Notes: generated from the sequence alone by a model not told the origin. A stretch of DNA of 64,000 nucleotides from Candidatus Woesebacteria bacterium (GCA_013374855.1 CP055308.1:16358-80357); one strand, 5' to 3'. Positions 18,901-44,100 are shown, counted from the stretch's first letter. Translations and numbers: made by a program.

Positions 18901-19326
18901 ATGGCAAAAAAAGTAAAAGTTGTTATTAAAGTAAACCTAAAAGGTGGTGAGGCAACGCCTGCGCCTCCTTTGGGACCCGCTTTGGGACAACACGGAGTCG
19001 CCATAATGGATTTTGTCAAAGCCTACAATGATAAAACTGCCAATATGAAAGGACAGGTAGTTCCCGCAGTCATTACCATATATGAAGACAGGTCTTTTGA
19101 CTTTGAGATAAAAAAAGCGCCCGTTGCCGATATGATTAAAAAAGAACTTGGCCTTGAAAAAGGTGCAAAACAAGCGCTTCGCGAAACTGTCGGAACATTA
19201 ACCAAAGAGCAGGTAGAAAAAATAGCCAAAGAAAAAATGGACGACCTTAATACTGACGACTTGGAAGCAGCAAAAAGAATAGTAGAAGGTACTGCCCGAT
19301 CAATGGGAGTCAAGGTTCAAGAATAA
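18901..19326 (+). CDS. rplK: 50S ribosomal protein L11
   Basis: 141 aa; PAPPLGPALGQHGVAIMDFVKAYN L11 signature. Confidence 0.95.
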   Translation: MAKKVKVVIKVNLKGGEATPAPPLGPALGQHGVAIMDFVKAYNDKTANMKGQVVPAVITIYEDRSFDFEIKKAPVADMIKKELGLEKGAKQALRETVGTLTKEQVEKIAKEKMDDLNTDDLEAAKRIVEGTARSMGVKVQE

Positions 19327-19327
19327 T

Positions 19328-22389: not shown

Positions 22390-22418
22390 TTTGCGCCTTG
22401 GTGAGGCGCTTTTTTATT
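22390..22418 (+). terminator. terminator/attenuator-like hairpin in the rplJ leader
   Basis: GCGCC-TTGGTGA-GGCGC followed by TTTTTTATT. A 21-bp DNA palindrome GGACAGGGTCCGACCCTGTCC follows at 22426-22446, 12 nt before the rplJ start. Confidence 0.4.
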
Positions 22419-22457
22419 GTAACGGACAGGGTCCGACCCTGTCCAGGAAACAAGAGT

Positions 22458-22979
22458 ATGAAAAAAGCAGAAAAACCATTATTTGTAGAAAACTTAAAAG
22501 AAGAGTTAAAGGCAGCCACCGCCGTGGTTCTGGTTGACTTTCAGGGTCTTTCTGTAAAACTTCAGCAAGAACTTAAAAAAAGACTAAAAACTCAAGGCGC
22601 CAGACTCACCGTTGTCAAGAATACCCTTTTTAAGATAGCATCTGAAAAGGCTGATATGCCGGAAAATTTGCGCTCGGACTCTGTTCTCTCAGGACCTACT
22701 GCCCTTGTGATAACAGAAGGTGATCCAATTGCTCCTCTTCAAATACTTGCAAAATTTGCAAGCGAATTTGAAATTCCAAAATTTAAAGTTGGTGTTGTAG
22801 AAGGAAAATTCCAAGACAAAGAAAATTTGATTTCACTCTCAAAACTTCCCTCAAAAAATGTCCTCTTGGGACAAACAATTGGATCTATATCCTCCCCACT
22901 ATACGGGATAATATTTGCACTTCAATCTAATTTACAAAAGCTAGTTTTTATATTGAAAACCAAATCTGAAAGCAATTGA
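22458..22979 (+). CDS. rplJ: 50S ribosomal protein L10
   Basis: Start at MKKAEKPLFVENLKEELK (the ORF-track start at 22398 would read through the leader); L10 family similarity. Confidence 0.9.
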   Translation: MKKAEKPLFVENLKEELKAATAVVLVDFQGLSVKLQQELKKRLKTQGARLTVVKNTLFKIASEKADMPENLRSDSVLSGPTALVITEGDPIAPLQILAKFASEFEIPKFKVGVVEGKFQDKENLISLSKLPSKNVLLGQTIGSISSPLYGIIFALQSNLQKLVFILKTKSESN

Positions 22980-22994
22980 AAGGGGGTGTAAAAA

Positions 22995-23408
22995 ATGGCA
23001 GACGAAAAATTATCCAAAAATGTCGAAGAATTAGTAGAAAAGATAAGTTCTCTTTCTGTTCTTGAACTTGCTGAACTTACAAAAGCATTGCAGGAAAAAC
23101 TTGGAGTTTCTGCAGTTCCTGTTGCTGCCGCTCCTGCTGCGGCAACGCCTGCAGCTGAAGGACAGCAAGAAGCAGCGTCTCAAGAAGGAGGTTCTGGAAC
23201 ACAAACTTTGGTTATGACAAACGCAGGAGCAAACAAAATAAATGTGATCAAGGCACTTCGAGAGATAAACCAAAACCTAACTTTAATGGACGCAAAAGCA
23301 ATGACAGAAAATGTTCCTGCTGAAATCTTAAAAGACGCAAAAGCAGAAGATGTAAAAGCTGCAGCAGAAAAACTCAAGGCAGCAGGCGCAACAGTAGAAA
23401 TAAAATAA
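22995..23408 (+). CDS. rplL: 50S ribosomal protein L7/L12
   Basis: 137 aa; Ala/Pro-rich hinge then the conserved C-terminal domain (…EKLKAAGATVEIK). Confidence 0.95.
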   Translation: MADEKLSKNVEELVEKISSLSVLELAELTKALQEKLGVSAVPVAAAPAAATPAAEGQQEAASQEGGSGTQTLVMTNAGANKINVIKALREINQNLTLMDAKAMTENVPAEILKDAKAEDVKAAAEKLKAAGATVEIK

Positions 23409-27451: not shown

Positions 27452-27676
27452 TTGCCTATGCAAATATTTTTTGTTAAAATCAGCGCTAGCGTGTCAAAAA
27501 TAATAAACTATTTAAAAGAAGTCCGTCTTGAACTTTCCAAAGTTACTTGGCCCAAAAAGGAAGAAACAATAAAACTGACTTTGACAGTTGTTGTTTTTTC
27601 AGCTATAGTAGCAGGATATGTAGGGCTTCTGGACTTTGCTTTTACCAGCATTTTAACTAAAATCCTAACAAGATGA
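27452..27676 (+). CDS. secE: preprotein translocase subunit SecE
   Basis: 74 aa; EVRLELSKVTWPKKEETIKLTLTVVVFSAIVAGYV matches the SecE cytoplasmic segment plus single TM; 4-nt overlap with nusG. Confidence 0.85.
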   Translation: MPMQIFFVKISASVSKIINYLKEVRLELSKVTWPKKEETIKLTLTVVVFSAIVAGYVGLLDFAFTSILTKILTR

Positions 27677-28269
27677 AAAAAGACGAAAAAAATCAACAAG
27701 AAGAAAAAGTTTTTGGACACATTGTTATAAACAAAGAAGAAAACCCAAATGCCAAATGGTATGTTGTTCATACCGCCTCAGGCCACGAGATGCGTGTTGC
27801 AGAAACATTGCGGCAACGTGTTGAATCAATGAATCTAGAAAGTAATGTCTTGGAACTGCTTGTGCCAACTCAAGACAGAATCGTCATTAGAAGTGGTAAA
27901 AAAGCAACAGTAAAAGAAAAAATTCTACCCGGATATCTTTTAGTAAAGATGATTCTTGACGACCCAACATGGCTTGCCGTGCGCACCACTCCAGGTGTCA
28001 CAGGTTTTGTAGGAACAGGAAAAGACCCGTCCCCTCTAAGTGAAAACGAAGTAGAAAATATATTTAAGTTTGTTTCAACCCCCGCAAAGCGGTTCAAAAC
28101 TAAATTTTCAATCGGTGAAGCAGTCAAAATTGTCGATGGTCCATTCTCTGGTTTCCTTGGCGCAATAAATGAAATGGATGAAGAAAGAGGCAAGGTGAAA
28201 GTTTTAGTCTCTATCTTTGGCAGAGAAACCCCGGTCGAACTTGACTTCCTACAAATCCAAAAAGTATAA
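27673..28269 (+). CDS. nusG: transcription termination/antitermination factor NusG
   Basis: 198 aa; NGN domain (WYVVHTASGHEMRVAETLRQRVE), KOW motif (FSIGEAVKIVDGPFSGFLGAI). Confidence 0.95.
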   Translation: MKKDEKNQQEEKVFGHIVINKEENPNAKWYVVHTASGHEMRVAETLRQRVESMNLESNVLELLVPTQDRIVIRSGKKATVKEKILPGYLLVKMILDDPTWLAVRTTPGVTGFVGTGKDPSPLSENEVENIFKFVSTPAKRFKTKFSIGEAVKIVDGPFSGFLGAINEMDEERGKVKVLVSIFGRETPVELDFLQIQKV

Positions 28270-28363
28270 ACCTCTGTTGACAAGGACGGACCTTGTCAAG
28301 TAAATCTGGATTGCAAATCAGAAATAAGATAAAATAATAAACATAAATATATTGTGTTCTCAA

Positions 28364-28434
28364 AGGGGTGTGATGAAATGGTATCATGGCGGTCTCCAAA
28401 ACCGCTCTTCCAGGTTCGAGTCCTGGCACCCCTG
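28364..28434 (+). tRNA. tRNA-Trp (anticodon CCA)
   Basis: Acceptor AGGGGTG/CACCCCT, anticodon arm GCGGT-CTCCAAA-ACCGC, T arm CCAGG-TTCGAGT-CCTGG. Confidence 0.85.
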
Positions 28435-28755
28435 CATTCAATTTTTAAAACAATTCAAAAAATAAACACTACATCTTTCAAACTGCGTATCCCAAAAAGT
28501 CTTAACTGACAATAAAGGACTTCTACTGCGAGTCAAACGCAGTTGAGCTAATATACGGAGGCAGGCAATCATACGATTTGCCAATAGAAGTTTGGAACTC
28601 AACCTCTGAATATCTTGAAAGTATGAAAATGAGGAAAGCTTAGTTGTCAAAAATATAGGCAATAAATAAGTTGACCTAGTAAATATCAGTCAAAACCCCG
28701 AATTAAACGAGATTATCGCTACCTTCAGCCTTCTTGAGGGATAAGAGAAAAATAT

Positions 28756-28785
28756 TTGTATCGATGTATTAATACATCGATACAA
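28756..28785. promoter_or_regulatory. perfect 30-bp palindrome TTGTATCGATGTATTAATACATCGATACAA (copy 2 of the ATGTATTAATACATC motif)
   Basis: Read directly; identical to its own reverse complement. Lies between tRNA-Trp and the 3' end of the ATP-grasp operon. Confidence 0.55.
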
Positions 28786-28790
28786 AATAG

Positions 28791-28832
28791 AAAAAGTGAG
28801 GGGTGTGAAGCTATATCACCCGGAGGGTGTGT
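28791..28832. repeat. about 42-nt motif AAAAGTGAGGGGTGTGAAGCTATATCACCCGGAGGGTGTG (copy 1)
   Basis: Near-identical copy at 29628-29669; each abuts or overlaps the stop codon of a minus-strand gene. Contains mutually exclusive hairpins CACCC-NNN-GGGTG. Confidence 0.7.
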
Positions 28833-28842
28833 AGTAAGAAAA

Positions 28843-29562
28843 TTATTTAGCCAACAAACCAAATAGTTCACCCAAAAGCTGTGGAGGAAAACTGGAGGTT
28901 GTTCTTTTAGGCTCTGACACTCCTACAAAATTCGCCTTCACCTGTTCCAACTTACCTTGGTCATTTTTATATTGTCTCGTCAACCATTTAAGCATCCGCC
29001 TGTTTATTCTATCTACAATTTCGCTAGCCCTATGAATACCTTTCTCATCATCCAAAACAGCAAGCTCAATCAAATCGGCAGCTGTTTGCAAAATCCCCCT
29101 GCCGCGAGTGCCCTCTTGGGGCTCTCCATCATTGACAAGTCGTGGTAAATTAAGTTCTTCCCCTTTCTGGTGAGCAAATCGAACCAAAGCCTCAAATTTT
29201 TCTCTACCAAGCAAAGAAAAAACACCAAAAGCCCTATCTTCAAATTTACCCTCTCCCCCTCTGCAAAAAGAATCTAAAACGCCATCAGCAGGAAGAGGCA
29301 TCCACCTCCCTCCTTTTGGTTTGGATCTATCATAAACTAAAATTTCGCCTCCTTCGCCAATTTTTGCGCGAAACTGAGAAGCCTCAAGAGATTCTCGAAC
29401 TTCAGGAGAAACCTCTTTCTCCAAACCAAATATTTCCCTTAAGTTGTCATAAAAACCACGCAAATTATCAATATCAACCTTAATCGGTTTCTCCCTTTCC
29501 GCACAAATCAACATCTCTCTAATCAATAAATCTTTCAATCCGCCGGTTTCTTGCTCAACCAT
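28843..29562 (-). CDS. hypothetical protein (239 aa), last gene of the ATP-grasp operon, bracketed by the 42-nt motif
   Basis: ORF; no recognisable domain. Confidence 0.55.
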   Translation of the reverse strand: MVEQETGGLKDLLIREMLICAEREKPIKVDIDNLRGFYDNLREIFGLEKEVSPEVRESLEASQFRAKIGEGGEILVYDRSKPKGGRWMPLPADGVLDSFCRGGEGKFEDRAFGVFSLLGREKFEALVRFAHQKGEELNLPRLVNDGEPQEGTRGRGILQTAADLIELAVLDDEKGIHRASEIVDRINRRMLKWLTRQYKNDQGKLEQVKANFVGVSEPKRTTSSFPPQLLGELFGLLAK

Positions 29563-29627
29563 ACCAATTCACTTAAATTATACAACAAACTGTCAACAGT
29601 TCTCCTATTCATCATATAAAAAGAATG

Positions 29628-29669
29628 AAAAGTGAGAGGAGTGAAGCTGTATCACCCGGAGGGTGTGGT
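29628..29669. repeat. about 42-nt motif AAAAGTGAGAGGAGTGAAGCTGTATCACCCGGAGGGTGTGG (copy 2)
   Basis: Overlaps the last codons and stop (…HSTTPSG*) of the 304-aa ATP-grasp gene. Confidence 0.7.
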
Positions 29670-30566
29670 AGAATGTTTGCGAAGAGACTCAAAGTATTTG
29701 ATAATCTCAAGTGCGGCATTAACGCCTGTATATTTTTCAAGACCTTCAAACTGAGGAGAAGGATTGACTTCCAAGATATAAGGCTTACCCGTGTCTTTGT
29801 TTATAATTATATCAACTCCTGCAATTTCTGTCCTTGATACTTTTGCTGCATTCTCGGCAATTTTTTTTATTTCTGGATAATTATCCAGCTCAAATTTTTC
29901 TCCTCTTCCTCCCTGGCTGATATTGCTTCTAAACTCACCTTCCCTTGTTGGAACTCGTTTCATTGCCCCTATTGCCTTGAAACCGACAGTAAAAATCCTT
30001 AAATCTCCATCATTTGGTATAAACTCGCGAATAACAACAGCCTTCACTCCTGTATGGTGAATCTCCTCAATCGCATTTTTAACCTCATCAAAATTGTGAC
30101 ACAAATAAACTCCTCGCCCTTGCCTCCCCGCACTGGTTTTGACAATTAAAGGATAATTAAACTTACCAATTACCGCCTCTGCTCCTTTTTTGTTAAAAAC
30201 AACGCAAGAAGCAGGATAAGGAAGATTGTTTTGAGTCTGTCGCAAGTAGTCAATCGCCGGCGTCAAATAATATTTATATCCAGCCTCAACAGTTTTTCTA
30301 TTTACAATCAAAGTCCCAAAATTTTCCGCTAAATAAGAAGCTGCCGTATACCACTCCCACCGCCTGTTACCAACCATAAGATAAATGAGATTATAATCTT
30401 TTAGATGCCTGCCATCGGCCAAGAATGCATCAAAACCATTAGTTTTACATTCCAAAATCAAATCAGCAGCGTAGCAACCTTCCACCTGATGTCCAAGTTT
30501 TCCTCCCTCTTCCTGAAGCCTCAAAAGCTGAATATTTGTAACAAGTCCTGCTATAAGGATTTTCAT
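29652..30566 (-). CDS. RimK-like ATP-grasp ligase (alpha-L-glutamate ligase family)
   Basis: 304 aa; ATP-grasp core (PLIVKTSAGRQGRGVY…EFIPNDGDLRIFTVG…AGVDIIINKDTGKPYILEVNPSPQF). Confidence 0.8.
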   Translation of the reverse strand: MKILIAGLVTNIQLLRLQEEGGKLGHQVEGCYAADLILECKTNGFDAFLADGRHLKDYNLIYLMVGNRRWEWYTAASYLAENFGTLIVNRKTVEAGYKYYLTPAIDYLRQTQNNLPYPASCVVFNKKGAEAVIGKFNYPLIVKTSAGRQGRGVYLCHNFDEVKNAIEEIHHTGVKAVVIREFIPNDGDLRIFTVGFKAIGAMKRVPTREGEFRSNISQGGRGEKFELDNYPEIKKIAENAAKVSRTEIAGVDIIINKDTGKPYILEVNPSPQFEGLEKYTGVNAALEIIKYFESLRKHSTTPSG

Positions 30567-30567
30567 T

Positions 30568-31443
30568 TTAAAATGCCCTCTCTATGGCATTTTCAAGCCA
30601 TATTCGAGCTATATTTTTACCCGTTGCCTTTTCCATCCCCACAAAACCAGCTGTATGATTAACTTCCAGAATATAGCGTCCTCCGTCTTTGCCTATTAGA
30701 ATATCCACTCCACCAACGGACATATCAACTGTCTTCAAGGCATCAATGGCAAGTTTTTCATCATCCTTGCTAATATTAAAGACCTCGACGCTTCCACCCA
30801 GAGAAAAATTGGCTCTAAATTCCCCTGGACTTGGAATTCTTCTCATACAAAAAACATTATTCCCTATAACAAGACATCGTAAATCATGTTCATAATCAAT
30901 AAACTCTTGCATCAAATAGCTTTTTGCCTCCTTACCTTGAGATTCTGCATCTTCGATAAATTCAGAGAGTTTTTCTTTTGAATCAATCTTAAAAACGGAA
31001 TATCCTTTACCAGCGCGAACCAATTTAACAACCACCGGAAAACCTATTTCTTCTGCCGCCTTTTTGTAGTCGGAAAAATTACGAGAATAGAAAGTCTTTG
31101 GAATAGAAATACCCTTCAAGGCAAGTTTCAAAAGATCTGATACCTTATCAATTGAATACTTGTGTTGTACAAAATTATTATCAAATACCTTAACACCGAG
31201 GCTTCTTAGATATTCAACAACTACAGAAATAGGCTTTATATTGTTAAAAATACCCCTTACAATAACAAGATCCGCCTTCGCAACTTCCTCTAAACGACCA
31301 AGATTTATTTTTGATTCGTCAACAAAGAATCTAAAATCACCAAGATCAAAAATTTCAAAATCATAACCTAAAGACAAGGATTCTTCCTTCAATCTCTCAT
31401 TTTCTACTAAAGATGGAAGCGTTGTAAGTAATACTATTTTCAT
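30568..31443 (-). CDS. RimK-like ATP-grasp ligase, second paralog
   Basis: 291 aa; PVVVKLVRAGKGYSVF…EFIDYEHDLRCLVIGN…GGVDILIGKDGGRYILEVNHTAGF. Confidence 0.8.
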   Translation of the reverse strand: MKIVLLTTLPSLVENERLKEESLSLGYDFEIFDLGDFRFFVDESKINLGRLEEVAKADLVIVRGIFNNIKPISVVVEYLRSLGVKVFDNNFVQHKYSIDKVSDLLKLALKGISIPKTFYSRNFSDYKKAAEEIGFPVVVKLVRAGKGYSVFKIDSKEKLSEFIEDAESQGKEAKSYLMQEFIDYEHDLRCLVIGNNVFCMRRIPSPGEFRANFSLGGSVEVFNISKDDEKLAIDALKTVDMSVGGVDILIGKDGGRYILEVNHTAGFVGMEKATGKNIARIWLENAIERAF

Positions 31444-32777
31444 AAGCCCTTCAAGGAAAAACTTCTTACCAATCTTTCTTTTTCTTCTGCCTCAACTTCA
31501 GGCCTAACTAAAAATCCTTTTAAATCTTTCCTCCCTATTATAACAGGAAATTTCAAAGAATGCCTCTTTGAAACAGAAGCGGAAGTCTCAATTCTTCTCC
31601 CACCAAGCCAAAAAACAAGACCAATAATCTTCCTCTTCTCCTTCCCAAGAGAACTGCTTACATCTTTTGTCCAAAGGATATTTTCTTCCCCAAGAAGACC
31701 TAACTTCTGCGCTAGATTTCTATCAATTGAAGTCCTCCAAGCACCTGTATCTACTTTAGCGGCAACTTCAATTTTTTTACCACCAGCTGATTTAATTTTA
31801 ATTTTTTCAAAAGCATCTACTATTTTTATACCCTCTTCAACCTTTACTCTATCAGCAAAAGGTCCCGCAAATAAAGCTTTAGCTACTTTTATACCATGTT
31901 CCGCATCCCTTATTTTCAAATCTTCAACCTTTTCAAGTCTTTTCTTTAGCCCTACTCCATTTGCCATCTGTATCGAAAGGCCAGGTTGCGAGTTAATTTC
32001 CAAAACAACAGGTCCTTTAGTTGGGTGAAGAACTACATCCACTCCCACATACCCCAAGAAACAAGCTTCCTGAGCCAATATAGCAGTTTCTAAAATCTTA
32101 TTCCAATTAGGAATTTTTATCCCATGAAGCTTGCGTTTTGTACCAGGCTTAAATTTAATAATCTCTCCATGCCAAATAGCACGAGTTGTAATACCAGTTG
32201 CAATATCAATCCCTACTCCAATTGCTCCTTGATGAAGATTTGCCCTGCCCCCTGACTCCTTGGTAGGAAGCCTAAGCATCGCCATTACAGGAACACGATT
32301 AAAAACTATAACCCTAATATCCGGCGTCCCGCGATAGGCGTATTTTCTAAAAGCCTTATGCCTCCCAACATATTCTTCAATATAGGCAATATCCGGCTCA
32401 TTGCCCATTGAGAAAGCCCCTTCCAAAATATCAGTTGTGTGAAGCTTCAAATCGTCAACCGTTACTCTTTTCCTTTGCGTAGTAATCCAGCCATTGCCAT
32501 CCTTTGCCTTTCTTTTGACAACTATTATCCCCTCTCCCCCAAGCCCTTGGTTTGGTTTTAAGGCAAAGCTTGAAGGGAGAGTATTCCAATCAAAATTCCA
32601 GACATCCTCAAAGGTCTTAAATTTCGCATAAATTTCAGGCACCGGAACGCCTGCTTTTTTTAAATATTTTTTGGTCAAAAGCTTTGAGGCAGCAATAGCC
32701 TTACCTTTAGCAGTATTATAAACATAGGAAAACATTTTATTCCTTGCATTTATTCCCAAGATATCAGAAATTTTCAT
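31440..32777 (-). CDS. ATP-grasp ligase fused to a C-terminal retropepsin-like (RimK-associated 'ATP-dependent zinc protease'/DUF785-like) domain
   Basis: 445 aa; N-terminal ATP-grasp (FALKPNQGLGGEGIIVVKR…VLEINSQPGLS) and C-terminal AKVDTGAWRTSID with the aspartic-protease D-T-G-A motif. Confidence 0.7.
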   Translation of the reverse strand: MKISDILGINARNKMFSYVYNTAKGKAIAASKLLTKKYLKKAGVPVPEIYAKFKTFEDVWNFDWNTLPSSFALKPNQGLGGEGIIVVKRKAKDGNGWITTQRKRVTVDDLKLHTTDILEGAFSMGNEPDIAYIEEYVGRHKAFRKYAYRGTPDIRVIVFNRVPVMAMLRLPTKESGGRANLHQGAIGVGIDIATGITTRAIWHGEIIKFKPGTKRKLHGIKIPNWNKILETAILAQEACFLGYVGVDVVLHPTKGPVVLEINSQPGLSIQMANGVGLKKRLEKVEDLKIRDAEHGIKVAKALFAGPFADRVKVEEGIKIVDAFEKIKIKSAGGKKIEVAAKVDTGAWRTSIDRNLAQKLGLLGEENILWTKDVSSSLGKEKRKIIGLVFWLGGRRIETSASVSKRHSLKFPVIIGRKDLKGFLVRPEVEAEEKERLVRSFSLKGL

Positions 32778-32806
32778 ATTTTTTGAATATAAAAGTTATT
32801 CTTTTT

Positions 32807-33712
32807 TTAAGAAGAAATCAATTTTCTAAAACGCCAATACTCCATAAAACGCAAACCCACATAACGCCCCACTAAAATATCGATTATCATTACCAAAAAC
32901 AGAAAAACCTCAGGATTTAAAAGCGCATATCGACGGAGTGGCTCAAGCGTTAAAAGAAAATAAGAAAAAAGAGCAAGAACTAAAGTTTCAGCTGTTAAGT
33001 TTAATGCTGTTCTTACGCTTTTCCCAAGCTGAACTCGAGAAAAATCCTCTGCCAATAAAACAAGAATAAGAACAGGAAAAATAGAAACATTAGTTAACCC
33101 AATTTCTTTCAATAAAGGTGCAGAAAACAAAAGACCCAAGACCCCAATTACCACAAACCACAAAAGCATTGCCATTCTTGGAAGATATTGAAGCCTAAGT
33201 TTTAGTTTTCTTGTAATCATTCTAAATAAAGTGGAAAAAAAGATGATAACGGTAAAAATTAAAACTCCAAGCAGAGGCCCAATGGCAATAAAAACAACCG
33301 AGAGAGCAGCCGGCATAAAAATTCCAAAACCGCGTAGGCCGATCAAATGACGGGAGGCGGCAATTAAGGCGGCAACGGCCGTTAAAAGCAAAAGTAAAAC
33401 TATCGTGTTTGCCGGCACTCCTGCGGCAACCGATTTTCTGATTGCATATTTCATAAAATTAAACGGCCAGACAGCGCCTATTCCTTGTTCTGCCAAAAGT
33501 TTTTCTAGAGGACCTATTGCTTCTTCCGTTTTTTGAGTTATGTCAACCTTGGGCAACGGTGTAGTGATTTCCTCAACTTTTGACGATTCCATTTGCTTAT
33601 CTATGGGAGTTGGCGGTGGTGAAGAAACCACAGGAAAAACCGCAAAAACAGATTTTGCACAAAAGAAGACAAAAACAAAAGCTGCCAACAAAGAAAGCTG
33701 CAGAAATTTCAT
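32807..33712 (-). CDS. polytopic membrane protein (signal peptide, about 65-aa extracytoplasmic segment, about 7 TM helices)
   Basis: Hydropathy read from the sequence; first gene of the ATP-grasp operon. Confidence 0.6.
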   Translation of the reverse strand: MKFLQLSLLAAFVFVFFCAKSVFAVFPVVSSPPPTPIDKQMESSKVEEITTPLPKVDITQKTEEAIGPLEKLLAEQGIGAVWPFNFMKYAIRKSVAAGVPANTIVLLLLLTAVAALIAASRHLIGLRGFGIFMPAALSVVFIAIGPLLGVLIFTVIIFFSTLFRMITRKLKLRLQYLPRMAMLLWFVVIGVLGLLFSAPLLKEIGLTNVSIFPVLILVLLAEDFSRVQLGKSVRTALNLTAETLVLALFSYFLLTLEPLRRYALLNPEVFLFLVMIIDILVGRYVGLRFMEYWRFRKLISS

Positions 33713-33729
33713 AATCTATATTATACCGT

Positions 33730-34330
33730 AAGTACCCAAGAGTGAACAACAACGTTGACGCGAACAAACAACTTCCAACAACCAACTAACAACAAGATTA
33801 GAACATAAAACAAAGAACAACGCTCCCCGCGAACAATTAACAATTAACATTTAACAATTAACGGATAGAGCACATAACCTTGAACAAATCTCCTAACAAG
33901 GTCTGGCCTTTAATAAAGGCCAGACCTTTATAGAATCAAATTACAAATTACAAATTACAAAGCAAAAATAACAAATAACAATTAACAATTAACTATTGAC
34001 CATTAACCATTGACCCTTGAAATAGTAGAACAAAGAACATAGAACAAAGAACAAAGTGAATTAAGATTCTAGAATAAATTCATAAATCCTAATTCATAAA
34101 TCATAAATCAAATCTTCAACTTCTACTCTCCCGCTCTTCTATACAACATAGAACAAAGAACATAGAACAAAGTTAGAATATAGAATGTAGATTATAGAAT
34201 GTAGAAACAACTCAAGAGTCAGATATACATAATACCAGATACCAGATACAAATACTTTCTTATACTCTTATACTCTTATACTCTTCAACTCTTCCACCCT
34301 TTTAATGACTTTTGAATTAACTTCCACTTT
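33730..34330. repeat. mosaic short-tandem-repeat element, copy A (inverted relative to copy B at 48890-49440)
   Basis: 600 bp non-coding stretch built from 2-4x tandem 7-14-mers (TTAACAA, AAATTAC, ATAGAACAAAGAAC, CATAAAT, TAGAATGTAGA, ATACCAG, TTATACTC, CATTGACC) plus the palindrome GGTCTGGCCTTTAATAAAGGCCAGACC. About 330 bp align at about 90% with the reverse complement of 49130-49440. Confidence 0.8.
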
Positions 34331-34404
34331 TCCATTCTCTTACTCTCATCAAAATTAAATCCTATAGTTGCAAAACGGAGGAGAATAAGATAAAATATAC
34401 ACAA

Positions 34405-35781
34405 ATGAGAGATACTGACAATAGAATTTCCAGACGGGAGTTTATGAAGCTTTCAGGTGTAGCAATTACTGGGGCAATACCTCATCAAATCATAGAAAGA
34501 GTAAGTCTCCTTTTATCTAAAGAAAGAATAACAACAATAAACACTTTAACAGCTCATCAAGCTGCATTTTATGCTCAAACAATATTTAAAGGCCAACCTT
34601 ACGAACTTGGAGTAAGAGATTGCGCGATGTTTGCCGCCCAATTTGCCTCATACTATGGCATACCCCTTGTAAGAACCAACACCACCAATATCAATGAATA
34701 TTCCCCTCAGCCTCCAAAAGATCCAATGCCAGACGCATCAACAATATTCCAAGTAAAATGGTTTGAAACAGCAGCAACTCTCCTACCGAAAGAACTTATT
34801 CAAACCTACTCCTACAATCAAATCGCGGATATAAACTCTTGGCATAAGATAAATCCCGGCTCATTACTCTACCTGAGAAACAAAGGGCGCACTCATCATG
34901 GATATAATACATATTTCCATACTCTTGCTTACATAGGAATTAACAAACAACAACCGATTTTTGCTGAATATAATGTAGGTATGAAAAAAGGCCCAGAAGT
35001 TGGAATACCGCTAGACAAGATTTTATCCAGATATCAAAACTTACCTAACGATCAGATAACAGGCACTATAATAAATGTCCCCGGATTATCAACTGAAATA
35101 TGGCAAAGACAAACAGGAAAAGTTTCCCCTAATTACGATTCTAGAATTTTAAGAGAGGCAGGTCAACAAATTCTAACTATAAACTTAATTGATGGCACCG
35201 CAACCTACTGGCAGGTAGATTCAAAAGGAAAATTCATTCAAAAACCGTTTGAAAACAAAGAAATGGAGGTTAGAACAGAAAGAATCGGCACCCAAATTCC
35301 ATCAGATCCGTATACCATACTCACCTTCTACAAGTTTACCCAGCCCCACTATTTTGTTTCCCTCGGTATGCCCACAACAGAAGAGGGATGTTTCTACGGA
35401 GCACCTCTTTGCGTTCCACGTTTTCTCACTATTCCTCCAATGGTAGCTGGTGTTAACCTCACAAGTGAGGGGGCTTCTCTGGAAATACTATACTCACCTT
35501 CAACAGGGAAAATAGAAAAAGGAACCCCACAACACGTTTATATTCTTCAGCCCAGTAATGCCTTTTTGCCAAAAAACACTGCTATCACATTCCCACCCCA
35601 AACCTTTGAAGCTATCCGGAAAACGATAGATAAAGGAATAAAAACAATTTTGATTTTATCATATCCACAATTTCCACAAGACATTCTCTTACAGAAAGGC
35701 AATTCTCTCCTTGGAAAAGATCCTTTACTTGATTTTCTTAACACCCACAAGATGCCTCCACAAGTTCTCACAGGCCGATAA
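34405..35781 (+). CDS. Tat-signal secreted protein with N-terminal papain/C39-like domain
   Basis: 458 aa; SRREFMKLSGVAITGA twin-arginine signal; GVRDCAMFAAQFASYYGI (C39-like Cys helix) and HHGYNTYFHTLAYIG (His). Confidence 0.55.
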   Translation: MRDTDNRISRREFMKLSGVAITGAIPHQIIERVSLLLSKERITTINTLTAHQAAFYAQTIFKGQPYELGVRDCAMFAAQFASYYGIPLVRTNTTNINEYSPQPPKDPMPDASTIFQVKWFETAATLLPKELIQTYSYNQIADINSWHKINPGSLLYLRNKGRTHHGYNTYFHTLAYIGINKQQPIFAEYNVGMKKGPEVGIPLDKILSRYQNLPNDQITGTIINVPGLSTEIWQRQTGKVSPNYDSRILREAGQQILTINLIDGTATYWQVDSKGKFIQKPFENKEMEVRTERIGTQIPSDPYTILTFYKFTQPHYFVSLGMPTTEEGCFYGAPLCVPRFLTIPPMVAGVNLTSEGASLEILYSPSTGKIEKGTPQHVYILQPSNAFLPKNTAITFPPQTFEAIRKTIDKGIKTILILSYPQFPQDILLQKGNSLLGKDPLLDFLNTHKMPPQVLTGR

Positions 35782-35875
35782 ATCCCCTCCCTCACCTTAA
35801 AAACAAAATCTACCTTCCCAGATCAAAATAACTCCAAGAAGAAAAAACCACTAGACATTTGAGTGAGCAGAAAAA

Positions 35876-36730
35876 TTGTTTATTTCGGAGAAGAAGAGTA
35901 GAACAAAAAACTCTCCAAGGTCTCACAATAACCTGGCTAAACCAAAAAGTATTATATATTCAAGAACAAACCTAAAAATCAAAAGGAGAATTGTTCCAAG
36001 GATGAGCAAATACAAACTCAAGCCTCAACTTGATGAGTTTTGTTTGCAAAATAATCTCCAAATGGTATCAACTGCAACCATTGGGAGAATTATTAAAAGA
36101 AATAATCTGTTTTATTACAGATCAGGCAAAGTATATCACAATCCTGCATCTAAATGGGCTCAGAATGAGACCAAAAGAAAGAAAAAAGCAAGAGTCAGGT
36201 ATGCGCCAAAACCTTCAAATTTAGGTTACATTCAAATGGATACGGTTGAAAAAATAATTGATGGGCAAAGATGGTATATGTACCAGGCAATTGATGTTCA
36301 AGGGAAATCTGCCCTTTCCTTGACATACAGAAGACTTAATTCAAAAAACACAGTAGATTTCTTTAAAAAGTTCCAGTTTATCTTGCCTTACAAGGTAACC
36401 ACAGTCCAAACAGACAATGGACTTGAGTTTTTGGGGCATTTTGATGCCTACCTCCAAGCTCAGTGTGTCCCACATGTCTTTACTTATCCCAGATGCCCGA
36501 AGATTAATGGGGTCGTTGAGCGATTCAACAAAACACTAAATGAAGATTTTATTGAACCAAACCTCAATCTCATATATGACCAAAAACAATACAACAAAAA
36601 CTTAGCTGAATATATGATATATTACAACTGCATTAGACCACACGAATCATTAAATAATATGACACCGATTAACTACCTTATTCAGAAAGGAGGAATGTCG
36701 AAAATGTTGCGATCCTGTATATTGAATTGA
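35876..36730 (+). CDS. DDE-type integrase/transposase (rve catalytic core)
   Basis: 284 aa; …YIQMDTVEKI…WYMYQAIDVQGKSAL…TTVQTDNGLEF…NGVVERFNKTLNEDF… is the D,D(35)E rve pattern. The N-terminal HTH looks truncated; the true start may be MSKYKL at about 36002. No flanking terminal inverted repeats identified. Confidence 0.75.
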   Translation: MFISEKKSRTKNSPRSHNNLAKPKSIIYSRTNLKIKRRIVPRMSKYKLKPQLDEFCLQNNLQMVSTATIGRIIKRNNLFYYRSGKVYHNPASKWAQNETKRKKKARVRYAPKPSNLGYIQMDTVEKIIDGQRWYMYQAIDVQGKSALSLTYRRLNSKNTVDFFKKFQFILPYKVTTVQTDNGLEFLGHFDAYLQAQCVPHVFTYPRCPKINGVVERFNKTLNEDFIEPNLNLIYDQKQYNKNLAEYMIYYNCIRPHESLNNMTPINYLIQKGGMSKMLRSCILN

Positions 36731-36785
36731 AAAACCAATACCTAAGTGATATAATTCATCAGACAAACAAGACTGCCCTCCCAAA

Positions 36786-37493
36786 ATGTCAAAAGAGAGT
36801 TTATCAAGAAGAGAATTTTTAAAGTTGGGTGGGGTGATTCTTGTTTCCCGTCTTGTTCCAGACTGCCTTAGGGAGGTTAAACCATTCCCTTTCATTAACC
36901 AAAAAAACCAGTCTCAATGTGCCATTGCTTCTATGACTATGTTAATTGCCAGTTTCAAACAAAGAGAGAACAAACCTGATGTCAATGTCGAAAATATTTA
37001 CGACCAAGTCCTCCAACAAGCAATCAAGACAACCAAAAGAGATCTAACCAAACCATCCTCAAATGGGGTATATGGAAACGAAATAATTCAAATTCTTAAT
37101 TCTATAGGGCAACAGCAGGGATGGATAGCAAAAGACAACAGGAGAAAAGCTTCTCCTGAAGTAGTTGAGCAACAACTATTAGCATACGGACCTGCCATTG
37201 TAGATATAAATGTAGATTACAAACCAATAAAAAAGGACTATTCTTTGAATCATTGGGTTGTAGTAACCAATCTAGAAAGAAAGGGGGGTACTCGTGTAAT
37301 AATAGCCGACCCTTTCAGAACACAATCAAAGGTTCCGTTTCTTCCATTTTCTCCAACCTTGCCTGAAGGTGTTCAATTCTACGACGGCGACAACAGACTG
37401 ATAATCGCGGAGTGGACAACCTTTACCTCATCAGCTGGAGGCGTTTTTATACAACTGCAAAGAACATACAAACGGACAACTCCTTCCATTTAA
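36786..37493 (+). CDS. Tat-signal C39-like (papain-fold) peptidase-domain protein
   Basis: 235 aa; SRREFLKLGGVILVS signal; Q…C…H…D pattern (QSQCAIASMTMLIASF, HWVVVTNL, IIADP) typical of the C39-like family. Confidence 0.6.
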   Translation: MSKESLSRREFLKLGGVILVSRLVPDCLREVKPFPFINQKNQSQCAIASMTMLIASFKQRENKPDVNVENIYDQVLQQAIKTTKRDLTKPSSNGVYGNEIIQILNSIGQQQGWIAKDNRRKASPEVVEQQLLAYGPAIVDINVDYKPIKKDYSLNHWVVVTNLERKGGTRVIIADPFRTQSKVPFLPFSPTLPEGVQFYDGDNRLIIAEWTTFTSSAGGVFIQLQRTYKRTTPSI

Positions 37494-37520: not shown

Positions 37521-40292
37521 CTAGGGGTTTATTTCCCTCCAATTGAAGCTTCTCTGATAGAAGTAATAAGGCATAGAAAGGATAAGATTCGGTTTGTATT
37601 CAAATAATTCAGCAGGTGTGGATTGAGGATTCTTATCTAGAGTTAGAGATCTTTGAAGCTGTACTGTGTTGGCTACAACAGTCCCATTTACAATAAGCTG
37701 ACTGTCTTGTCTTGACCCTTCTGTCCCTGTAGAAAAAGAACCATCGGCAAGGAATATTCCATCAATTCTTGTTACTGAAGGATCAATTTTAATATCACCC
37801 GTTGCCACTATCATCAGAAAACCATTACCATTAGTAGCTAATGTAATGTCTCCTTCCACAGTTACGTCTCCATTAACAAAAAGTACAAGTTTTTGATTAA
37901 AGCCTGAAGAGGCACTAATCTTAAGATCTCCATTCACTTTAGTCCAATAGTAGTTGTCTTTTAGTATGCTGTTATTCCCTGTTGTAAAATTAGAAAGAGA
38001 TAATGGACTAACAGGACTATTAATAACACCTTGGGAGTTCCCCCACCCATTCCTAACTTCAGAAGGAACTTTGCCTTCAAAGTAGGAATAGTTATACAAG
38101 TTGTAGACAGAGGCAATATTTGTCTTTACTGCCCCCCATCCACTTTCTGAAACAGACCCCTCACCTATCCTAATGTTTCCATTATAGAAGGCAATACCAG
38201 AAGTATTACTACCTTTAGTCAGAAGATAACTACCTTCAGGAATATATGAGGCTATATCATTTAATGCAATAACATCAGCATCTTTAGCCTGCCAGAACTT
38301 ACCAGGCCTTACAATTACAGAAACAGAACAAGGAACATCGGCACTACCACATGCTTTACCAGAGCCATCAGCAGCAGGAGAACTAATAGTCAGAGTTGCA
38401 GTTTTCAAAACATCAACTTCTCCTGCTTCCAAATTAGCTCTTACTTCCCCATTGTCTCCCACACTTGATGAAATAACTCTAATTATGCTATTATCAGACG
38501 ATGTGACAGTGACAGAAGAATTGTTATTGTCTGACAGGGTAGCCAATAAGACATTATCCCTTCGTTCACCAGAAACAAAGGGAACAACACTTTGTAGAGT
38601 GCACTTGCAAGGAACCTCAATCGACCCGGGGCCACATGAGAAAAATCTCGCTAACCCGTTTCCGTGCACATACTCATTAACAGGACCATAAATCCCAGTT
38701 GCAGGATTATAACTTCTCCAAAGTAATCTCTGTCCCTTAGTCACAAAATCCAAAACCGGTTCATCCTCTGCCCTGAAAATTCTGTCAAAATCAATGGAAA
38801 ACTGAACAGGATAAATTCCTCCCTCATAATATCTTGGTCCTGTCCATATCTCATCAACCTTGGCAGAAGTAGAAGTTCCTCTTGGTATTCCTTCTACATC
38901 AATTTCAGCAATTATAACTGTCTTCTCACCTTTATCCCACCTTGGCTCCATCGTAATTGTGAAATTCCTGCAAACAGAGCCGTCCAACATTACCACCAAT
39001 TCTGTTTTTTGCTGCTCTGTAGACTGCCTGCTCAAACTCCCTAACAATTTCCCAACACTCCCCGGATCGTTACAAAAAACTTGAATCTTTTCAGGAGGAA
39101 AATGAAAAAGACCGCCAACTTTACCCGCAAAAAAGTAAAAGCGCAAAGTCTGCAAATAATAATAACCACCCATGTTAATATTAATTTTTGCCACTACATT
39201 TTGAAAAAAAGTCCATGCAGGATCAGAAAAATAACCACTGCCGTGATTGTCATCAGTCATCTCGCCACCACTATCAGTATTATTAAGTGGCTGGTTATCA
39301 ACCCAAGAGTAAGTGTAGTCTAAGTCTTGCTGAGCTTGATTTTTTATGTTTTCTGCAACATACGGCTTAGTAAACTCCCGCCATGTGTAAAGAGAAAACA
39401 ACTCTTCCAAACTTTTACTTGGATTGTAAATAGAAGAATCATAAACATTAGAGCGTATTGGGTCAGAAACACTGCTTCCACTTCCTCTTGCTCCAATCCA
39501 GCCATAAACTGACCCACCACATTTCAAACAAAGTTCCTCTAAATAAGAAGGAAGTATCCCAGCATCTCGCTCTCCTGGGAAGCAGGCAGATTGAACACTG
39601 GTATATACACAAGGGAACTGGCTTTGATTTGGAGTAACATTAGGGTCCCCACCTATAGGCGGAGGAAAAGATGGAAAAAGAGTTGAAACAGGGGAAGACT
39701 GATTAATGCTAATTGCAAAATCCCACCATCCCCGTGGTATGTACATATAGGAATAAGTTCTGTGGTAATCATTACAACACCTACCTGGAAAACCAATAGA
39801 GCCATACAGATACTGATCAGGAAAATCTAAAAATTTGTTAGAAAAACCAATAAGACCTATATTCAAAAGACTTGTCGAAGCCCAAGCGGTAATAGCACCA
39901 ACAGATTGGCCTAATAAGTTTGTTTCAGGAGAAAAAATAGGACGATTGCTACCTACATAAGAAGATGTAATCTTCGTAAAAACACCTCCACCTAATTTTA
40001 AATAATCTGGCACATAACCACTAACCTCACTACTAGTAATCATATCCCTAACCTCTTGGCATGTCTTATTGGGTAAGCCACAAGGAGGAGGGCTTGGCGG
40101 CAATTCCAATGTTCCATAACAAGGAAGTGACGTACCTGTATAGCTAGTACAGCCCTGAAAAACACCTCCATCAGGCAGGCTATACCACCAATAATAAGCC
40201 GCTTTTGCAAATCTCACAAAGAAGAATGCAAAAAAAACAAAGACCAAAAAAGCAACTAGACTATTTCTAAAAAGACCCCTTTTCATAGACAA
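37521..40292 (-). CDS. large Cys-rich secreted protein (923 aa) with Big_2-like Ig domain and a C-terminal domain shared with the 1042-aa paralog
   Basis: N-terminal signal/TM (LVAFLVFVFFAFFFV), many Cys pairs, Big_2-like segment (VTVTSSDNSIIRVISSSVGDNGEVRANLEAG…). The C-terminal about 330 aa are 75-100% identical to those of the 41181-44309 product. Confidence 0.7.
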   Translation of the reverse strand: MSMKRGLFRNSLVAFLVFVFFAFFFVRFAKAAYYWWYSLPDGGVFQGCTSYTGTSLPCYGTLELPPSPPPCGLPNKTCQEVRDMITSSEVSGYVPDYLKLGGGVFTKITSSYVGSNRPIFSPETNLLGQSVGAITAWASTSLLNIGLIGFSNKFLDFPDQYLYGSIGFPGRCCNDYHRTYSYMYIPRGWWDFAISINQSSPVSTLFPSFPPPIGGDPNVTPNQSQFPCVYTSVQSACFPGERDAGILPSYLEELCLKCGGSVYGWIGARGSGSSVSDPIRSNVYDSSIYNPSKSLEELFSLYTWREFTKPYVAENIKNQAQQDLDYTYSWVDNQPLNNTDSGGEMTDDNHGSGYFSDPAWTFFQNVVAKININMGGYYYLQTLRFYFFAGKVGGLFHFPPEKIQVFCNDPGSVGKLLGSLSRQSTEQQKTELVVMLDGSVCRNFTITMEPRWDKGEKTVIIAEIDVEGIPRGTSTSAKVDEIWTGPRYYEGGIYPVQFSIDFDRIFRAEDEPVLDFVTKGQRLLWRSYNPATGIYGPVNEYVHGNGLARFFSCGPGSIEVPCKCTLQSVVPFVSGERRDNVLLATLSDNNNSSVTVTSSDNSIIRVISSSVGDNGEVRANLEAGEVDVLKTATLTISSPAADGSGKACGSADVPCSVSVIVRPGKFWQAKDADVIALNDIASYIPEGSYLLTKGSNTSGIAFYNGNIRIGEGSVSESGWGAVKTNIASVYNLYNYSYFEGKVPSEVRNGWGNSQGVINSPVSPLSLSNFTTGNNSILKDNYYWTKVNGDLKISASSGFNQKLVLFVNGDVTVEGDITLATNGNGFLMIVATGDIKIDPSVTRIDGIFLADGSFSTGTEGSRQDSQLIVNGTVVANTVQLQRSLTLDKNPQSTPAELFEYKPNLILSMPYYFYQRSFNWREINP
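37922..38339. repeat. 417-bp segment 100% identical to 41590-42005 (direct repeat inside the two giant paralogs)
   Basis: Base-by-base comparison of the two stretches showed no mismatch; flanks drop to about 75%. Confidence 0.9.
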
Positions 40293-41180: not shown

Positions 41181-44100
41181 TTACGGATTTACCTCCCTCC
41201 AGTTTAAGTTTCTTTGATGGAAGTAGTAAGGAATAGAAAAGAGAAGGTTGGGTTTGTACTCAAATAGTTCAGCAGGTGTGGTTTGAGCTTGGCTTACAGG
41301 AAGGGATCTCCTAAGGATAACATTACTGGCAATAACTGTACCATTTACCTTAAGTTGGCTGTCTTGCCTTGATCCTCTTGTTCCTGTAGAAAAAGAACTA
41401 TCAGAAACAAATATTCCATCAATTCTTGTTACTGCAGGGTCAATTTCAATATCACCTGTTGCTATAACCATAAGGAAACCATTATTACCAACATCAGCAT
41501 TTCTTAATGTAATATCCCCTTTTATAGTCACTTTTCCATTAACAAAAAGCATAAGTTTTTTATCAAAGTTTGATGAAGAAGAAATTTGAAGATCTCCATT
41601 CACTTTAGTCCAATAGTAGTTGTCTTTTAGTATGCTGTTATTCCCTGTTGTAAAATTAGAAAGAGATAATGGACTAACAGGACTATTAATAACACCTTGG
41701 GAGTTCCCCCACCCATTCCTAACTTCAGAAGGAACTTTGCCTTCAAAGTAGGAATAGTTATACAAGTTGTAGACAGAGGCAATATTTGTCTTTACTGCCC
41801 CCCATCCACTTTCTGAAACAGACCCCTCACCTATCCTAATGTTTCCATTATAGAAGGCAATACCAGAAGTATTACTACCTTTAGTCAGAAGATAACTACC
41901 TTCAGGAATATATGAGGCTATATCATTTAATGCAATAACATCAGCATCTTTAGCCTGCCAGAACTTACCAGGCCTTACAATTACAGAAACAGAACAAGGA
42001 ACATCTGTGGTGCCACAGGCTAATTCCGACTCGTCAGAAGAGTTTGCGCTAATATTTAGTGTAACAGTCTTTACTTCATCCACTTGCCCTGCAGTTGCGT
42101 TAACCTTCACATTACCTGCATCATCAACACTAGTACTGTTTATTGACAAAACAGATGTATCAGAAGAAGAAACAGATACAGAAGAACGATCATAATTCCC
42201 AAGAGTCACCAAAGTCACGTCCTTCGTTTCTCCAGATACAAAAGGAGGAATAGATGGCTTGATAGTGCATTGGCAAGGCGTACTAGCCGGCTGACAGGGA
42301 CTAAGTCTTGCGCCTAAAGGATTTTGATTACCATCAGCAATGTTAGGATCCTCTTCATAAGGGTAAGCTTGACCACAAGAACTAGGGTCGCTACTAGTAC
42401 ACCTTCTCCACAAAAACTGAGGACCATAAATGCGACTACCATCTAAATTTGCAATTGACATTTGAGTCAAGTACCAGCCAGATTTGAAATACTTAGGACC
42501 AAAAAACACTGTATCAACAGGATTACTCCTATCAACGGCATAACTATCAAAACTAAAGCTATAAGCTCTACTCCAATCTTGCCTTCTAACATTTTCTTCA
42601 AGAACATTGTCCACCCTAACCGCATCCTCTGAAACAATAGGATTATTCTGACCCCAAACCTTAAGTTCTTGAAGATAGGTTGGTGTGTCCACTGTGTCCC
42701 CCGGCTCCGCAATCCCAATATAATACTTAACTCTCAAACTGCTACAATTTCTCCTCAAAGGTACTGATAATCTGTCTTCTGTATAAGATGTCGTATTGTT
42801 CGATGCTTTGAAGAGGACACGAGGATAAACAACTCCAGACCTTTCACCATCACAAAATACCCAAATCTCCTTGGGAACATTTATTACCTGACCGTACTGA
42901 TTCCTGTAAAGAAAATCAAAAGTAAGATAATCCACAAACTTTTCGCTACCAAGATCAATTTCCAAATCAGCATCCGCAACAGCCGTACCTAAATTACTAT
43001 CCTCATTATTATCAGGAAAATGCCTAACAAAGTAAAAATCACCATTTGGATAGGTAACACCAAATGGTGTGCCACTTCTTGTAACTTTATCGTCTCTTAA
43101 CTTAACATTACTTTCACTTTCTATATTATCATCTGTTTTATAACAATCAGCACAATCAGTTGTTGGGCTCACTAACCAACTATAAGTATAATCCAGCTTT
43201 ACAGAAGGAGGTATCTCGGGAGCTTCTATACTTTCATCAGGAGGAATATAAGGAGATGGTAAAAACGGATCAGCTTGTGTTCCTGAACCACCACCATTTG
43301 ATATCCAAGTGTAAATTTTGCCTCCACAATTTGGCTTACAACCAAAACTAGGTGGAGGTGTTAAAGTCTTGTACTCAGTACCATAACATATATATTCTTT
43401 TTCGTCACCACTACCTACTCTCCTAAAATCACAATCACTATAACTATTATAAGAACATGTCAAGTCTACACTATCACCAGAACACTTATATGAACCACGA
43501 CAATGACCACTACTCACCCGCGCAAAAGAATCATTTCGGTTGTTGCCATTACAACTTGAATAAGGCACACCAGGACTACTAAAAGGACAATAATAACAAG
43601 CGCCAGGTTCCAAACCTGTAAGATTAGACCTGTAACCAAAAGAATACCAACCATCACTAGGTATATAAATGTAGCCATACTCCCTTAATTGTTGCGTACA
43701 TTTGTTATTAAAAACAGAAAACATTTTTGAAGTTCCAGATAAGAATGCATCGACAAAGCCAACAGTATTTAATGAAATAGGTTCTTCCACCGCTCGACTT
43801 TTTTCAACTGAATCATCATCTAGCCTCGTTTCAGGTAAATAATAATCAACTGTAGAAGCAGTGCGTGCAATTGACTTATAGAAAACCTTGCTACTTTGAA
43901 AGGCCTTTTTTAAATCATCCTCGCTGCTACTTCCCTGAAGGCTATCTAATAAACTTTGTAAAGAGCTTTGGCAAGTTGTATTGTAATAGCTACACTGTGG
44001 CGGACTAAAATTACCAGGTTTATCCCCTATTTTTTTTACTACCTTATTTCTACGTGGTGCTTCACCACAATCCCCCCTACAATAACCAGCAAGTATTGGT

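Follow-up and report, generated by a model that had tools for sequence, protein, structure and literature searches.

Three proteins make up the Rlo system of Pseudomonas aeruginosa, encoded by rloABC: a secreted retropepsin, RloA; an inactive-transglutaminase/seven-transmembrane (7-TM) protein, RloB; and a cytoplasmic ATP-grasp ligase, RloC (PMC12239564). RloA cleaves runs of at least eight Glu. Mutants that have lost the three RloA proteases are sensitive to hypo-osmotic conditions and show envelope defects, which are suppressed by deletion of rloB or rloC (PMC12239564). This suppression fits RloB and RloC making what RloA degrades. In Pseudomonas, Rlo influences tolerance to antibiotics, the formation of biofilms, and the shape of the cell. 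In the Rim (RimABK) system, the cytoplasmic protease RimB cleaves runs of about six or more Glu, or five when the protein's own terminal Glu supplies the first (Little et al. 2025, JBC, PMC11957791). Free poly-alpha-L-glutamate from the ligase RimK was seen only with RimB present, and a natural RimB-RimK hybrid, RimBK, which carries the protease at its N-terminus, is proteolytically active (PMC11957791). Here, we describe a five-gene operon in a 64,000-nucleotide (nt) stretch of DNA from a Candidatus Woesebacteria bacterium (GCA_013374855.1, CP055308.1:16358-80357; hereafter, the window). Judged from its sequence, the core of this operon is a homologue of rloABC, and its gene association is one that Pfam already ties together.

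The genes, the two domains of the fusion protein, and the flanking signals are as follows (aa, amino acids; positions are counted from the first letter of the window).

32807-33712, minus strand: 7-TM RloB-like membrane protein, 301 aa
31440-32777, minus strand: ATP-grasp-retropepsin fusion protein, 445 aa
31923..32744, minus strand: ATP-grasp domain of the fusion (ATPgrasp_ST / TIGR02291-like, PF14397), aa 12-285
31494..31826, minus strand: retropepsin domain of the fusion (RloA/RimB-type, PF05618), aa 318-428, with D343-T-G-A and I-I-G-R416
30568-31443, minus strand: RimK-A, 291 aa
29652-30566, minus strand: RimK-B, 304 aa
28843-29562, minus strand: 239-aa protein ('G5')
33720..33749, minus strand: candidate sigma-70-type promoter, TTGTTC-18 nt-TATAAT, found by eye
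28755-28786, minus strand: terminator-like hairpin with a 14-bp stem and a T-run, found by a hairpin scan

An earlier note on this DNA had described five co-directional, tightly packed genes on the minus strand, and the open reading frames (ORFs) agreed with it exactly. From the 7-TM gene to the gene of the 239-aa protein, the spacings are 29 nt, a 4-nt overlap (ATGA) of the RimK-A start with the fusion stop, 1 nt, and 89 nt.

The ligase part of the fusion protein (aa 12-285) matched PF14397, ATPgrasp_ST, at 3.9e-70 with 236.7 bits (cutoff 31.4). In an alignment of the 121-member fusion family, the ATP-grasp residues K74, E135, D153/R155, R178/N180, D247, and E260/N262 were invariant. The K-loop and catalytic motifs were present on alignment in all three of the proteins that had been assigned to the ATP-grasp ligases in the earlier note. 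The ligase domain of the fusion lacks the RimK-type pre-ATP-grasp N-domain. The AlphaFold2 (AF2) model of the fusion monomer had a predicted local distance difference test (pLDDT) score of 85.6, and a Foldseek search with this model gave ArgX, RimK, and LysX as the top folds. The N-terminal segment (aa 1-12, I-L-G-x-N-x-R) was modelled with low confidence, yet its G8, N10, and R12 were invariant, a pattern that would fit a docking peptide. An insertion of about 35 residues compared to RimK (aa 187-223) follows an R-A-N-L-H-Q-G motif and includes the invariant residues G189, D191, G195, K210, K216, G219, and P223.

The main evidence for the substrate comes from the other end of the fusion. The isolated C-terminal domain scored 28.1 bits against PF05618, for which the gathering cutoff is 27, and PF05618 was matched by 24/24 sampled members of the fusion family. 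The DTGA motif was kept in 120 of the 121 members. These results uphold the earlier proposal of a D-T-G-A retropepsin-like domain fused C-terminally to an ATP-grasp. Foldseek with the whole fusion model gave ATP-grasp matches only and no retropepsin-fold match, so profile searches were conducted with the domain only. The domain profile matched only RloA-type structures (9g59 at 1.1e-5, 9g58 at 5.6e-4, and 2pma at 0.017), of which 9g58 and 9g59 are RloA-family structures (Lormand et al. 2025, mBio, PMC12239564). In the model, beta strands and one short helix are predicted for aa 318-425. Pairwise alignment matched K341, D343, R382, and R405 of the fusion with chain residues K26, D28, R94, and R117. 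After a shift of 20 in numbering, and with identical spacings (66 and 23), these correspond to K46, D48, R114, and R137 of RloA, and all four were invariant in the fusion family. K46, R114, and R137 are among the residues of RloA that coordinate poly-Glu, and RloA variants R114A and R137A did not rescue growth of the triple-protease mutant under hypoosmotic stress (PMC12239564). The conserved K/R/R set is thus the main evidence that a run of glutamates would be the substrate of the fused protease. The fusion has no signal peptide or hydrophobic N-terminus, suggesting that this protease is cytoplasmic and not secreted.

The 301-aa protein had been taken for a membrane protein without a recognizable domain, which was wrong, since it clearly matched PF14402, 7TM_transglut, at 3e-21 with 76.5 bits against a cutoff of 25. 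The match covered profile positions 53-247 only, and the protein aligned to the NCBIfam RloB model only at positions 313-506 of 508, which is the 7-TM part. The N-terminal transglutaminase domain is lacking. Hydropathy gave an N-terminal signal-like segment, an outside stretch of about 75 aa, and about seven transmembrane helices, in keeping with the earlier description of a signal peptide and seven helices. The predicted topology has the N-terminus outside and the C-terminus inside, because the loops and the tail placed inside carry positive charge. Across 51 aligned homologues chosen at a length of 270-340 aa, 27 residues were near-invariant, and many of these lie on predicted cytoplasmic loops and the C-terminal tail. 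Invariant residues on the predicted cytoplasmic side include R121, R164, Y176, P178, Q228, G286-L-R288, and E291. Full-length 7TM ORFs upstream of the fusion in long loci were about 260-335 aa.

The locus resembles RloABC in that an ATPgrasp_ST (TIGR02291-like) ligase, a 7TM_transglut protein, and a PF05618 retropepsin are encoded together in both, and in that the poly-Glu-binding residues of RloA are kept in the fusion. The differences lie in layout and host. The protease of the window is the C-terminal part of the ligase and cytoplasmic, whereas RloA carries a signal peptide and is secreted as a protein of its own. The RloB-like protein has about 300 aa compared to 508 and lacks the periplasmic inactive transglutaminase domain, and the operon adds RimK ligases. 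The host is a bacterium of the candidate phyla radiation (CPR), whereas RloB has been reported as 96% Proteobacteria. Monoderm Patescibacteria of the Woesebacteria type have no periplasm. This would explain why a cytoplasmic fused protease and a bare 7-TM protein replace the secreted protease and the periplasmic transglutaminase-like domain. We conclude that the system in the window is a stripped-down Rlo form of a known system and not a new kind of system. It extends Rlo well beyond the Proteobacteria, to CPR bacteria.

The association of ATP-grasp, 7TM-inactive-transglutaminase, and 'Zn_protease' genes was reportedly described by Iyer, Abhiman, Burroughs, and Aravind in 2009 (Mol Biosyst). 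PF14397, PF14402, and PF05618 presumably derive from the three-family association in that amidoligase survey. The earlier note had linked the operon to this published association, correctly, as the core families are the same. The minimal form in the window argues that the functional core consists of the ligase, the protease, and the 7-TM domain. A literature search found no paper naming RimK together with CPR or Patescibacteria.

The Rim systems offer a second comparison. In them, a cytoplasmic retropepsin works with an alpha-L-glutamate ligase, RimBK is a precedent for both activities in one polypeptide, and the two downstream ligases of the window are RimK-family members. However, the Rim systems have no 7-TM partner, and S6 targeting is not supported for the window. 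RimBK carries its protease at the N-terminus of a RimK-type ligase, whereas the fusion in the window begins with an RloC-type ligase (PF14397). Because domain order and ligase subtype are opposite to those of RimBK, the ligase-protease fusion of the window probably arose independently. A second and probably independent fusion of this kind adds weight to the idea that the making and the cutting of glutamate chains are coupled in mechanism. Cyanophycin synthetase and cyanophycinase likewise pair an ATP-grasp non-ribosomal polymer synthase, with weak ATP-grasp similarity to the ligases here, with a dedicated peptidase. The domain architecture here is different and includes no Mur-ligase-like domain, and the window proteins scored far under the family cutoffs, so the likeness is an analogy only.

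Next, conservation and gene linkage were examined. Searches for fusion homologues gave 6,759 matches at E <= 1e-10. The best 120 of these were all 425-463 aa long and 66-93% identical, which is the same architecture, and the fusion was confirmed in at least 565 of 600 candidate metagenomic stretches. A scan of the genome collection returned a single locus, and the named homologues were assigned to 'Candidatus Woesebacteria' or 'Patescibacteria group', so that the host is a CPR bacterium; its small genome had been guessed in the earlier note. Eighty-seven metagenomic loci were fetched (L numbers below), 55 with enough sequence for the 7TM test and 50 for the RimK count. In 55/55 loci, the 7TM gene came immediately before the fusion and in the same orientation, three apparent misses being ORF-start artefacts. 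Directly downstream of the fusion, there were no RimK-family genes in 7 loci, one in 18, two in 23, and three in 2, so that at least one adjacent RimK was present in 43/50. At least three of the seven loci without an adjacent RimK hold a RimK-family match elsewhere in the locus. Some loci carry fused double RimKs, and the orthologous RimK-A/RimK-B pair is confined to the subclade closest to the window. The commonest junction between the fusion and the first RimK was an ATGA start/stop overlap.

Two claims of the earlier note were affected by these counts. Three ligases in a row had been called an unusual concentration, which does not hold, because the fusion plus at least two RimK genes was found in 25/50 loci and is the lineage norm. 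The operon itself stands, since at least three other genomes (L004, L005, and L092) conserve the full set of five genes together.

Identity between genome pairs was as follows.

Fusion protein: 66-86%
NusG: 72-80%
L12: 57-82%
7-TM protein: 57-74%
RimK-A / RimK-B, where orthologous: 48-77%
L10: 42-68%
239-aa protein: 32-37%

The fusion is as conserved as the ribosomal proteins L10 and L12. The constant 7TM adjacency and high identity suggest that the 7TM-fusion pair is the constrained core, with the number of RimK genes and the last gene as variable accessories. Ligase number is a variable accessory feature. Conservation at the level of ribosomal proteins spans a large uncultured lineage with tiny genomes.

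On balance, we favor the view that the locus is a compact RloABC-type amidoligase system of monoderm Patescibacteria, responsible for ATP-dependent synthesis and built-in trimming of a poly-alpha-Glu-like product at the membrane. By extension from the Rim and Rlo literature, the ligase domain and the RimK paralogues would use ATP to make alpha-linked Glu-rich chains, either free or on an acceptor. Clan AA retropepsins are homodimers that have one catalytic Asp in each subunit. The fused protease may pair as a dimer inside the ligase oligomer and would cut runs of about 6-8 or more Glu. Such cuts could release chains, cap chain length, and leave fresh acceptor ends, which is the part that RimB plays for RimK. 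The 7-TM partner would hold the machine at the membrane and might export, anchor, or sense the product at the cell surface. The earlier note had suggested membrane-linked synthesis and processing of a peptide-like polymer. The general idea stands and matches what is known of RimB/RimK and RloABC, while the nature of the product is something we infer.

Several points weigh against this reading. No product or substrate has been established even for the Rlo system of Pseudomonas (PMC12239564). The fusion scored 275.3 bits against TIGR02291, 'alpha-L-glutamate ligase-like protein', which is under the cutoff of 314.2, and Pfam labels PF14397 as polysaccharide-associated ('sugar-transfer associated'). 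Sequence does not reveal which amino acids the three ligases would add. The pairwise and profile alignments behind the mapping of residues onto RloA are weak (E 0.02 to 1e-5). Loci differ in RimK copy number (0 to 3), and the tailoring-type genes found 3' of the operon in relatives could mean a small modified peptide, not poly-Glu. An export role for the 7-TM protein is purely conjectural.

The RimK paralogues raise the first alternative. RimK polyglutamylates ribosomal protein S6 in E. coli and Pseudomonas. RimK-A and RimK-B might do the same to S6 or another ribosomal protein, the fused retropepsin trimming the tails and the 7-TM protein only regulating. Both paralogues passed the TIGR00768 rimK_fam cutoff of 143.4, RimK-A with 182.3 bits (PF08443 at 2e-33) and RimK-B with 148.1 bits (PF08443 at 2e-35), and so the earlier description of two RimK-like ATP-grasp ligases is sound. 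Both also aligned end to end with RimK structures, RimK-A with P. aeruginosa RimK 7qyr at 3.7e-27 and RimK-B with 7qys at 2.3e-22, and their K-loop, D-x-R, F-R-x-N, G-V-D, and E-V-N motifs aligned with those of the structures. They share only 30% identity, suggesting that they are old paralogues. A ribosomal target would further agree with the RimB/RimK and RimBK precedents and with the position of the operon beside the secE-nusG-rplKAJL region in every long locus examined.

However, the S6-ligase equivalog PRK10446 was far from reached, with 97.7 bits for RimK-A and 78.7 bits for RimK-B against a cutoff of 331. RimK is missing from some loci where the 7TM-fusion pair is constant, and the ribosomal genes run toward the operon and are not transcribed with it. 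The S6 of a CPR genome with the same system (L070 1336-1653, 105 aa) ends in ...DKNKRRGD. In this one S6, the tail is basic and lacks the Glu-Glu end seen in the RimK substrates of E. coli and Pseudomonas. The published RimBK hybrid also did not glutamylate RpsF (PMC11957791). An acidic C-terminal-tail substrate was sought in the window and none was found, and rpsF is not in the window. We therefore consider modification of the ribosome to be quite improbable.

Another possible explanation arises from the 3' end of the operon in relatives. The slot there held a SAM methyltransferase in 11 loci, an extra ATP-grasp in 6, a GNAT protein in 5, and a large ATP-grasp fusion in 4, with single cases of an AAT-family acyltransferase-like protein, an M28 peptidase with a dockerin, and a weak Asp/Glu-racemase-like match. 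This variable slot, the gene after the last RimK, was seen in L008, L010, L020, L027, L038, L077, and L085, and the ATP-grasp fusions have 490-790 aa. The locus could thus work as an assembly line in which each of the ATP-grasps attaches its own kind of residue, either building a short, tailored peptide or decorating an envelope glycopolymer or a peptidoglycan precursor with amino acids, and the 7-TM protein would flip the product or accept it. Such a role would suit the tailoring-type genes of the slot, the three divergent ligases (30% identity or less), the 'sugar-transfer associated' name of PF14397, and the envelope genes near the operon in several genomes. It would not account for the invariant poly-Glu-binding K/R/R set in the protease domain. 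In addition, all three ligases are closest to alpha-L-glutamate ligases, and the tailoring genes are variable and none is in the window. We regard an assembly line as unlikely.

A role in anti-phage defence, or in maturation of a ribosomally synthesized and post-translationally modified peptide (RiPP) of the graspetide type, was also considered, as ATP-grasp enzymes are found in both kinds of system and weak matches to NCBIfam graspetide models were obtained. Those matches reached 25-35 bits against cutoffs of 230-475, a PADLOC scan gave no match for any of the five proteins, and no precursor peptide gene was seen. Housekeeping-level conservation and a fixed chromosomal position likewise argue against such a role, which we judge to be extremely improbable. 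The PADLOC, graspetide-model, and conservation results effectively exclude it. A PHROGs scan of the operon proteins gave nothing useful.

A bolder form of the poly-alpha-Glu reading can be proposed, although we hold it to be rather doubtful. In it, the 7TM and ligase-protease module of Woesebacteria would be a near-housekeeping maker and length-controller of a poly-alpha-glutamate-type surface polyanion. This would be a previously unrecognized CPR envelope polymer that may serve osmotic balance or host attachment, with the 239-aa protein as a new-fold regulator. If this were true, the minimal, single-compartment system of the window could be the most tractable route to the product of all Rlo systems. 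A natural minimal version of Rlo is in any case simpler for biochemistry, as it has no periplasmic parts and its ligase and protease are fused, and, being strongly conserved, it could help to identify the Rlo product. Taken alone, the present work is an incremental comparative-genomics result.

The last gene of the operon encodes a soluble 239-aa protein, for which no family was found in Pfam, NCBIfam, PADLOC, or PHROGs. In this respect the earlier note, which had seen no recognizable domain in it, was right. A confident AF2 model matched no solved or viral structure, the best viral match in Foldseek not falling below E = 0.6. A word-indexed homologue search found 3 proteins and a profile search 6, and an exhaustive profile search of 1.84 billion representatives gave 92 clusters. 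About 30 of these are full length, and about 60, of about 200 aa, have the C-terminal half only. The shorter relatives share the helical C-terminal half (profile positions ~112-237). One of them (L093 8001-8648), on the one long contig examined, has an unrelated set of neighbors, with secA, a peroxiredoxin, and a TPR protein nearby. The conserved residues of the 239-aa protein are R65, W87, G-R-G 155-157, N187, and F213, and these few invariant residues suggest no catalytic site. The protein is mildly acidic, with an isoelectric point of about 5-6, which argues against a simple polyanion binder. Most likely, it is an adaptor or regulator without enzyme activity that is specific to its lineage and is co-transcribed in this clade.

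It could instead be a syntenic passenger without a role in the ligase system, which we consider somewhat less probable than a role. The gene is missing from most loci, and in L088 and L089 it lies 3 kb off, between rplJ and rplA, beyond rplJ-rplL, so that it is not a constant member of the operon. The protein also evolves far faster than its neighbors, about 60 shorter relatives share only its C-terminal half, one in an unrelated context, and the 89-nt gap before the gene in the window holds promoter-like hexamers. On the other hand, in the window, L004, L005, and L092, a full-length member comes straight after RimK-B and in the same orientation, although the protein is only about 30% identical among these four genomes. 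Its start runs into the RimK-B stop in L004 and L005, and 12 nt separate the two genes in L092. In the window, the terminator-like hairpin comes after the gene and not before it. The family is tiny, fast-evolving, and lineage-restricted, and is only loosely tied to the ligase system.

The gap in question (29563-29651) contains a perfect AGGAGA followed by a TTG-started mini-ORF of 7 codons. Its TTGACA and TATAAT hexamers are 8 nt apart, which is a non-canonical promoter spacing, and no Shine-Dalgarno sequence is found directly ahead of the ATG of the 239-aa protein.

The terminator-like hairpin begins 57 nt past the stop of the gene for the 239-aa protein, and the hairpin scan found no terminator-like hairpin within any of the four intergenic gaps of the operon. 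At the other end, the -10 box of the candidate promoter ends 7 nt ahead of the ATG of the 7TM gene. This position would imply a leaderless or near-leaderless mRNA. The consensus promoter scan did not pick up this candidate, and its -35 hexamer matches at 3/6 positions only. The G+C content of the window is about 36-39%, and an Rfam scan of 28200-34500 returned tRNA-Trp only.

In relatives (L004-L007, L088, and L092), the operon is convergent on rplL, which ends the cluster secE-nusG-rplK-rplA-rplJ-rplL. The cluster in the window is rearranged, with rplK/rplA at 18901-20137, rplJ/rplL at 22398-23408, and secE/nusG/tRNA-Trp at 27452-28435, and the operon converges on tRNA-Trp instead of rplL. 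Upstream of the operon lie the following genes.

34405-37493, plus strand: three genes between the operon and the large surface-protein genes
37521-40292 and 41181-44309, minus strand: Cys-rich, signal-bearing paralogues of 923 and 1042 aa, with no Pfam match

The three genes encode a 458-aa protein with a twin-arginine-like signal and no Pfam match, an insertion sequence (IS)-type integrase (rve_3, 35876-36730), and a Peptidase_C39_2 protein with a similar signal. None of them has a homologue in related loci, so this segment looks like an insertion. The two Cys-rich paralogues have no acidic runs and are nearly identical over their C-terminal ~250 aa. The same C-terminal domain is found in proteins directly upstream of the 7TM gene in L004, L005, L092, L012, L025, and L044. 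Their upstream position in these six loci suggests that the large Cys-rich proteins are conserved neighbors of the operon that the insertion has moved away from it in the window.

Many different short tandem arrays (33763-34293) with a period of 7, and some of 8, 14, or 21, fill the 692 nt upstream of the operon. A near-perfect hairpin with arms of about 11 bp lies near 33895-33925. Similar units (AATGGTC and AATTGTT) make up the only other heptamer-rich stretch of the 64 kb, at 49060-49424.

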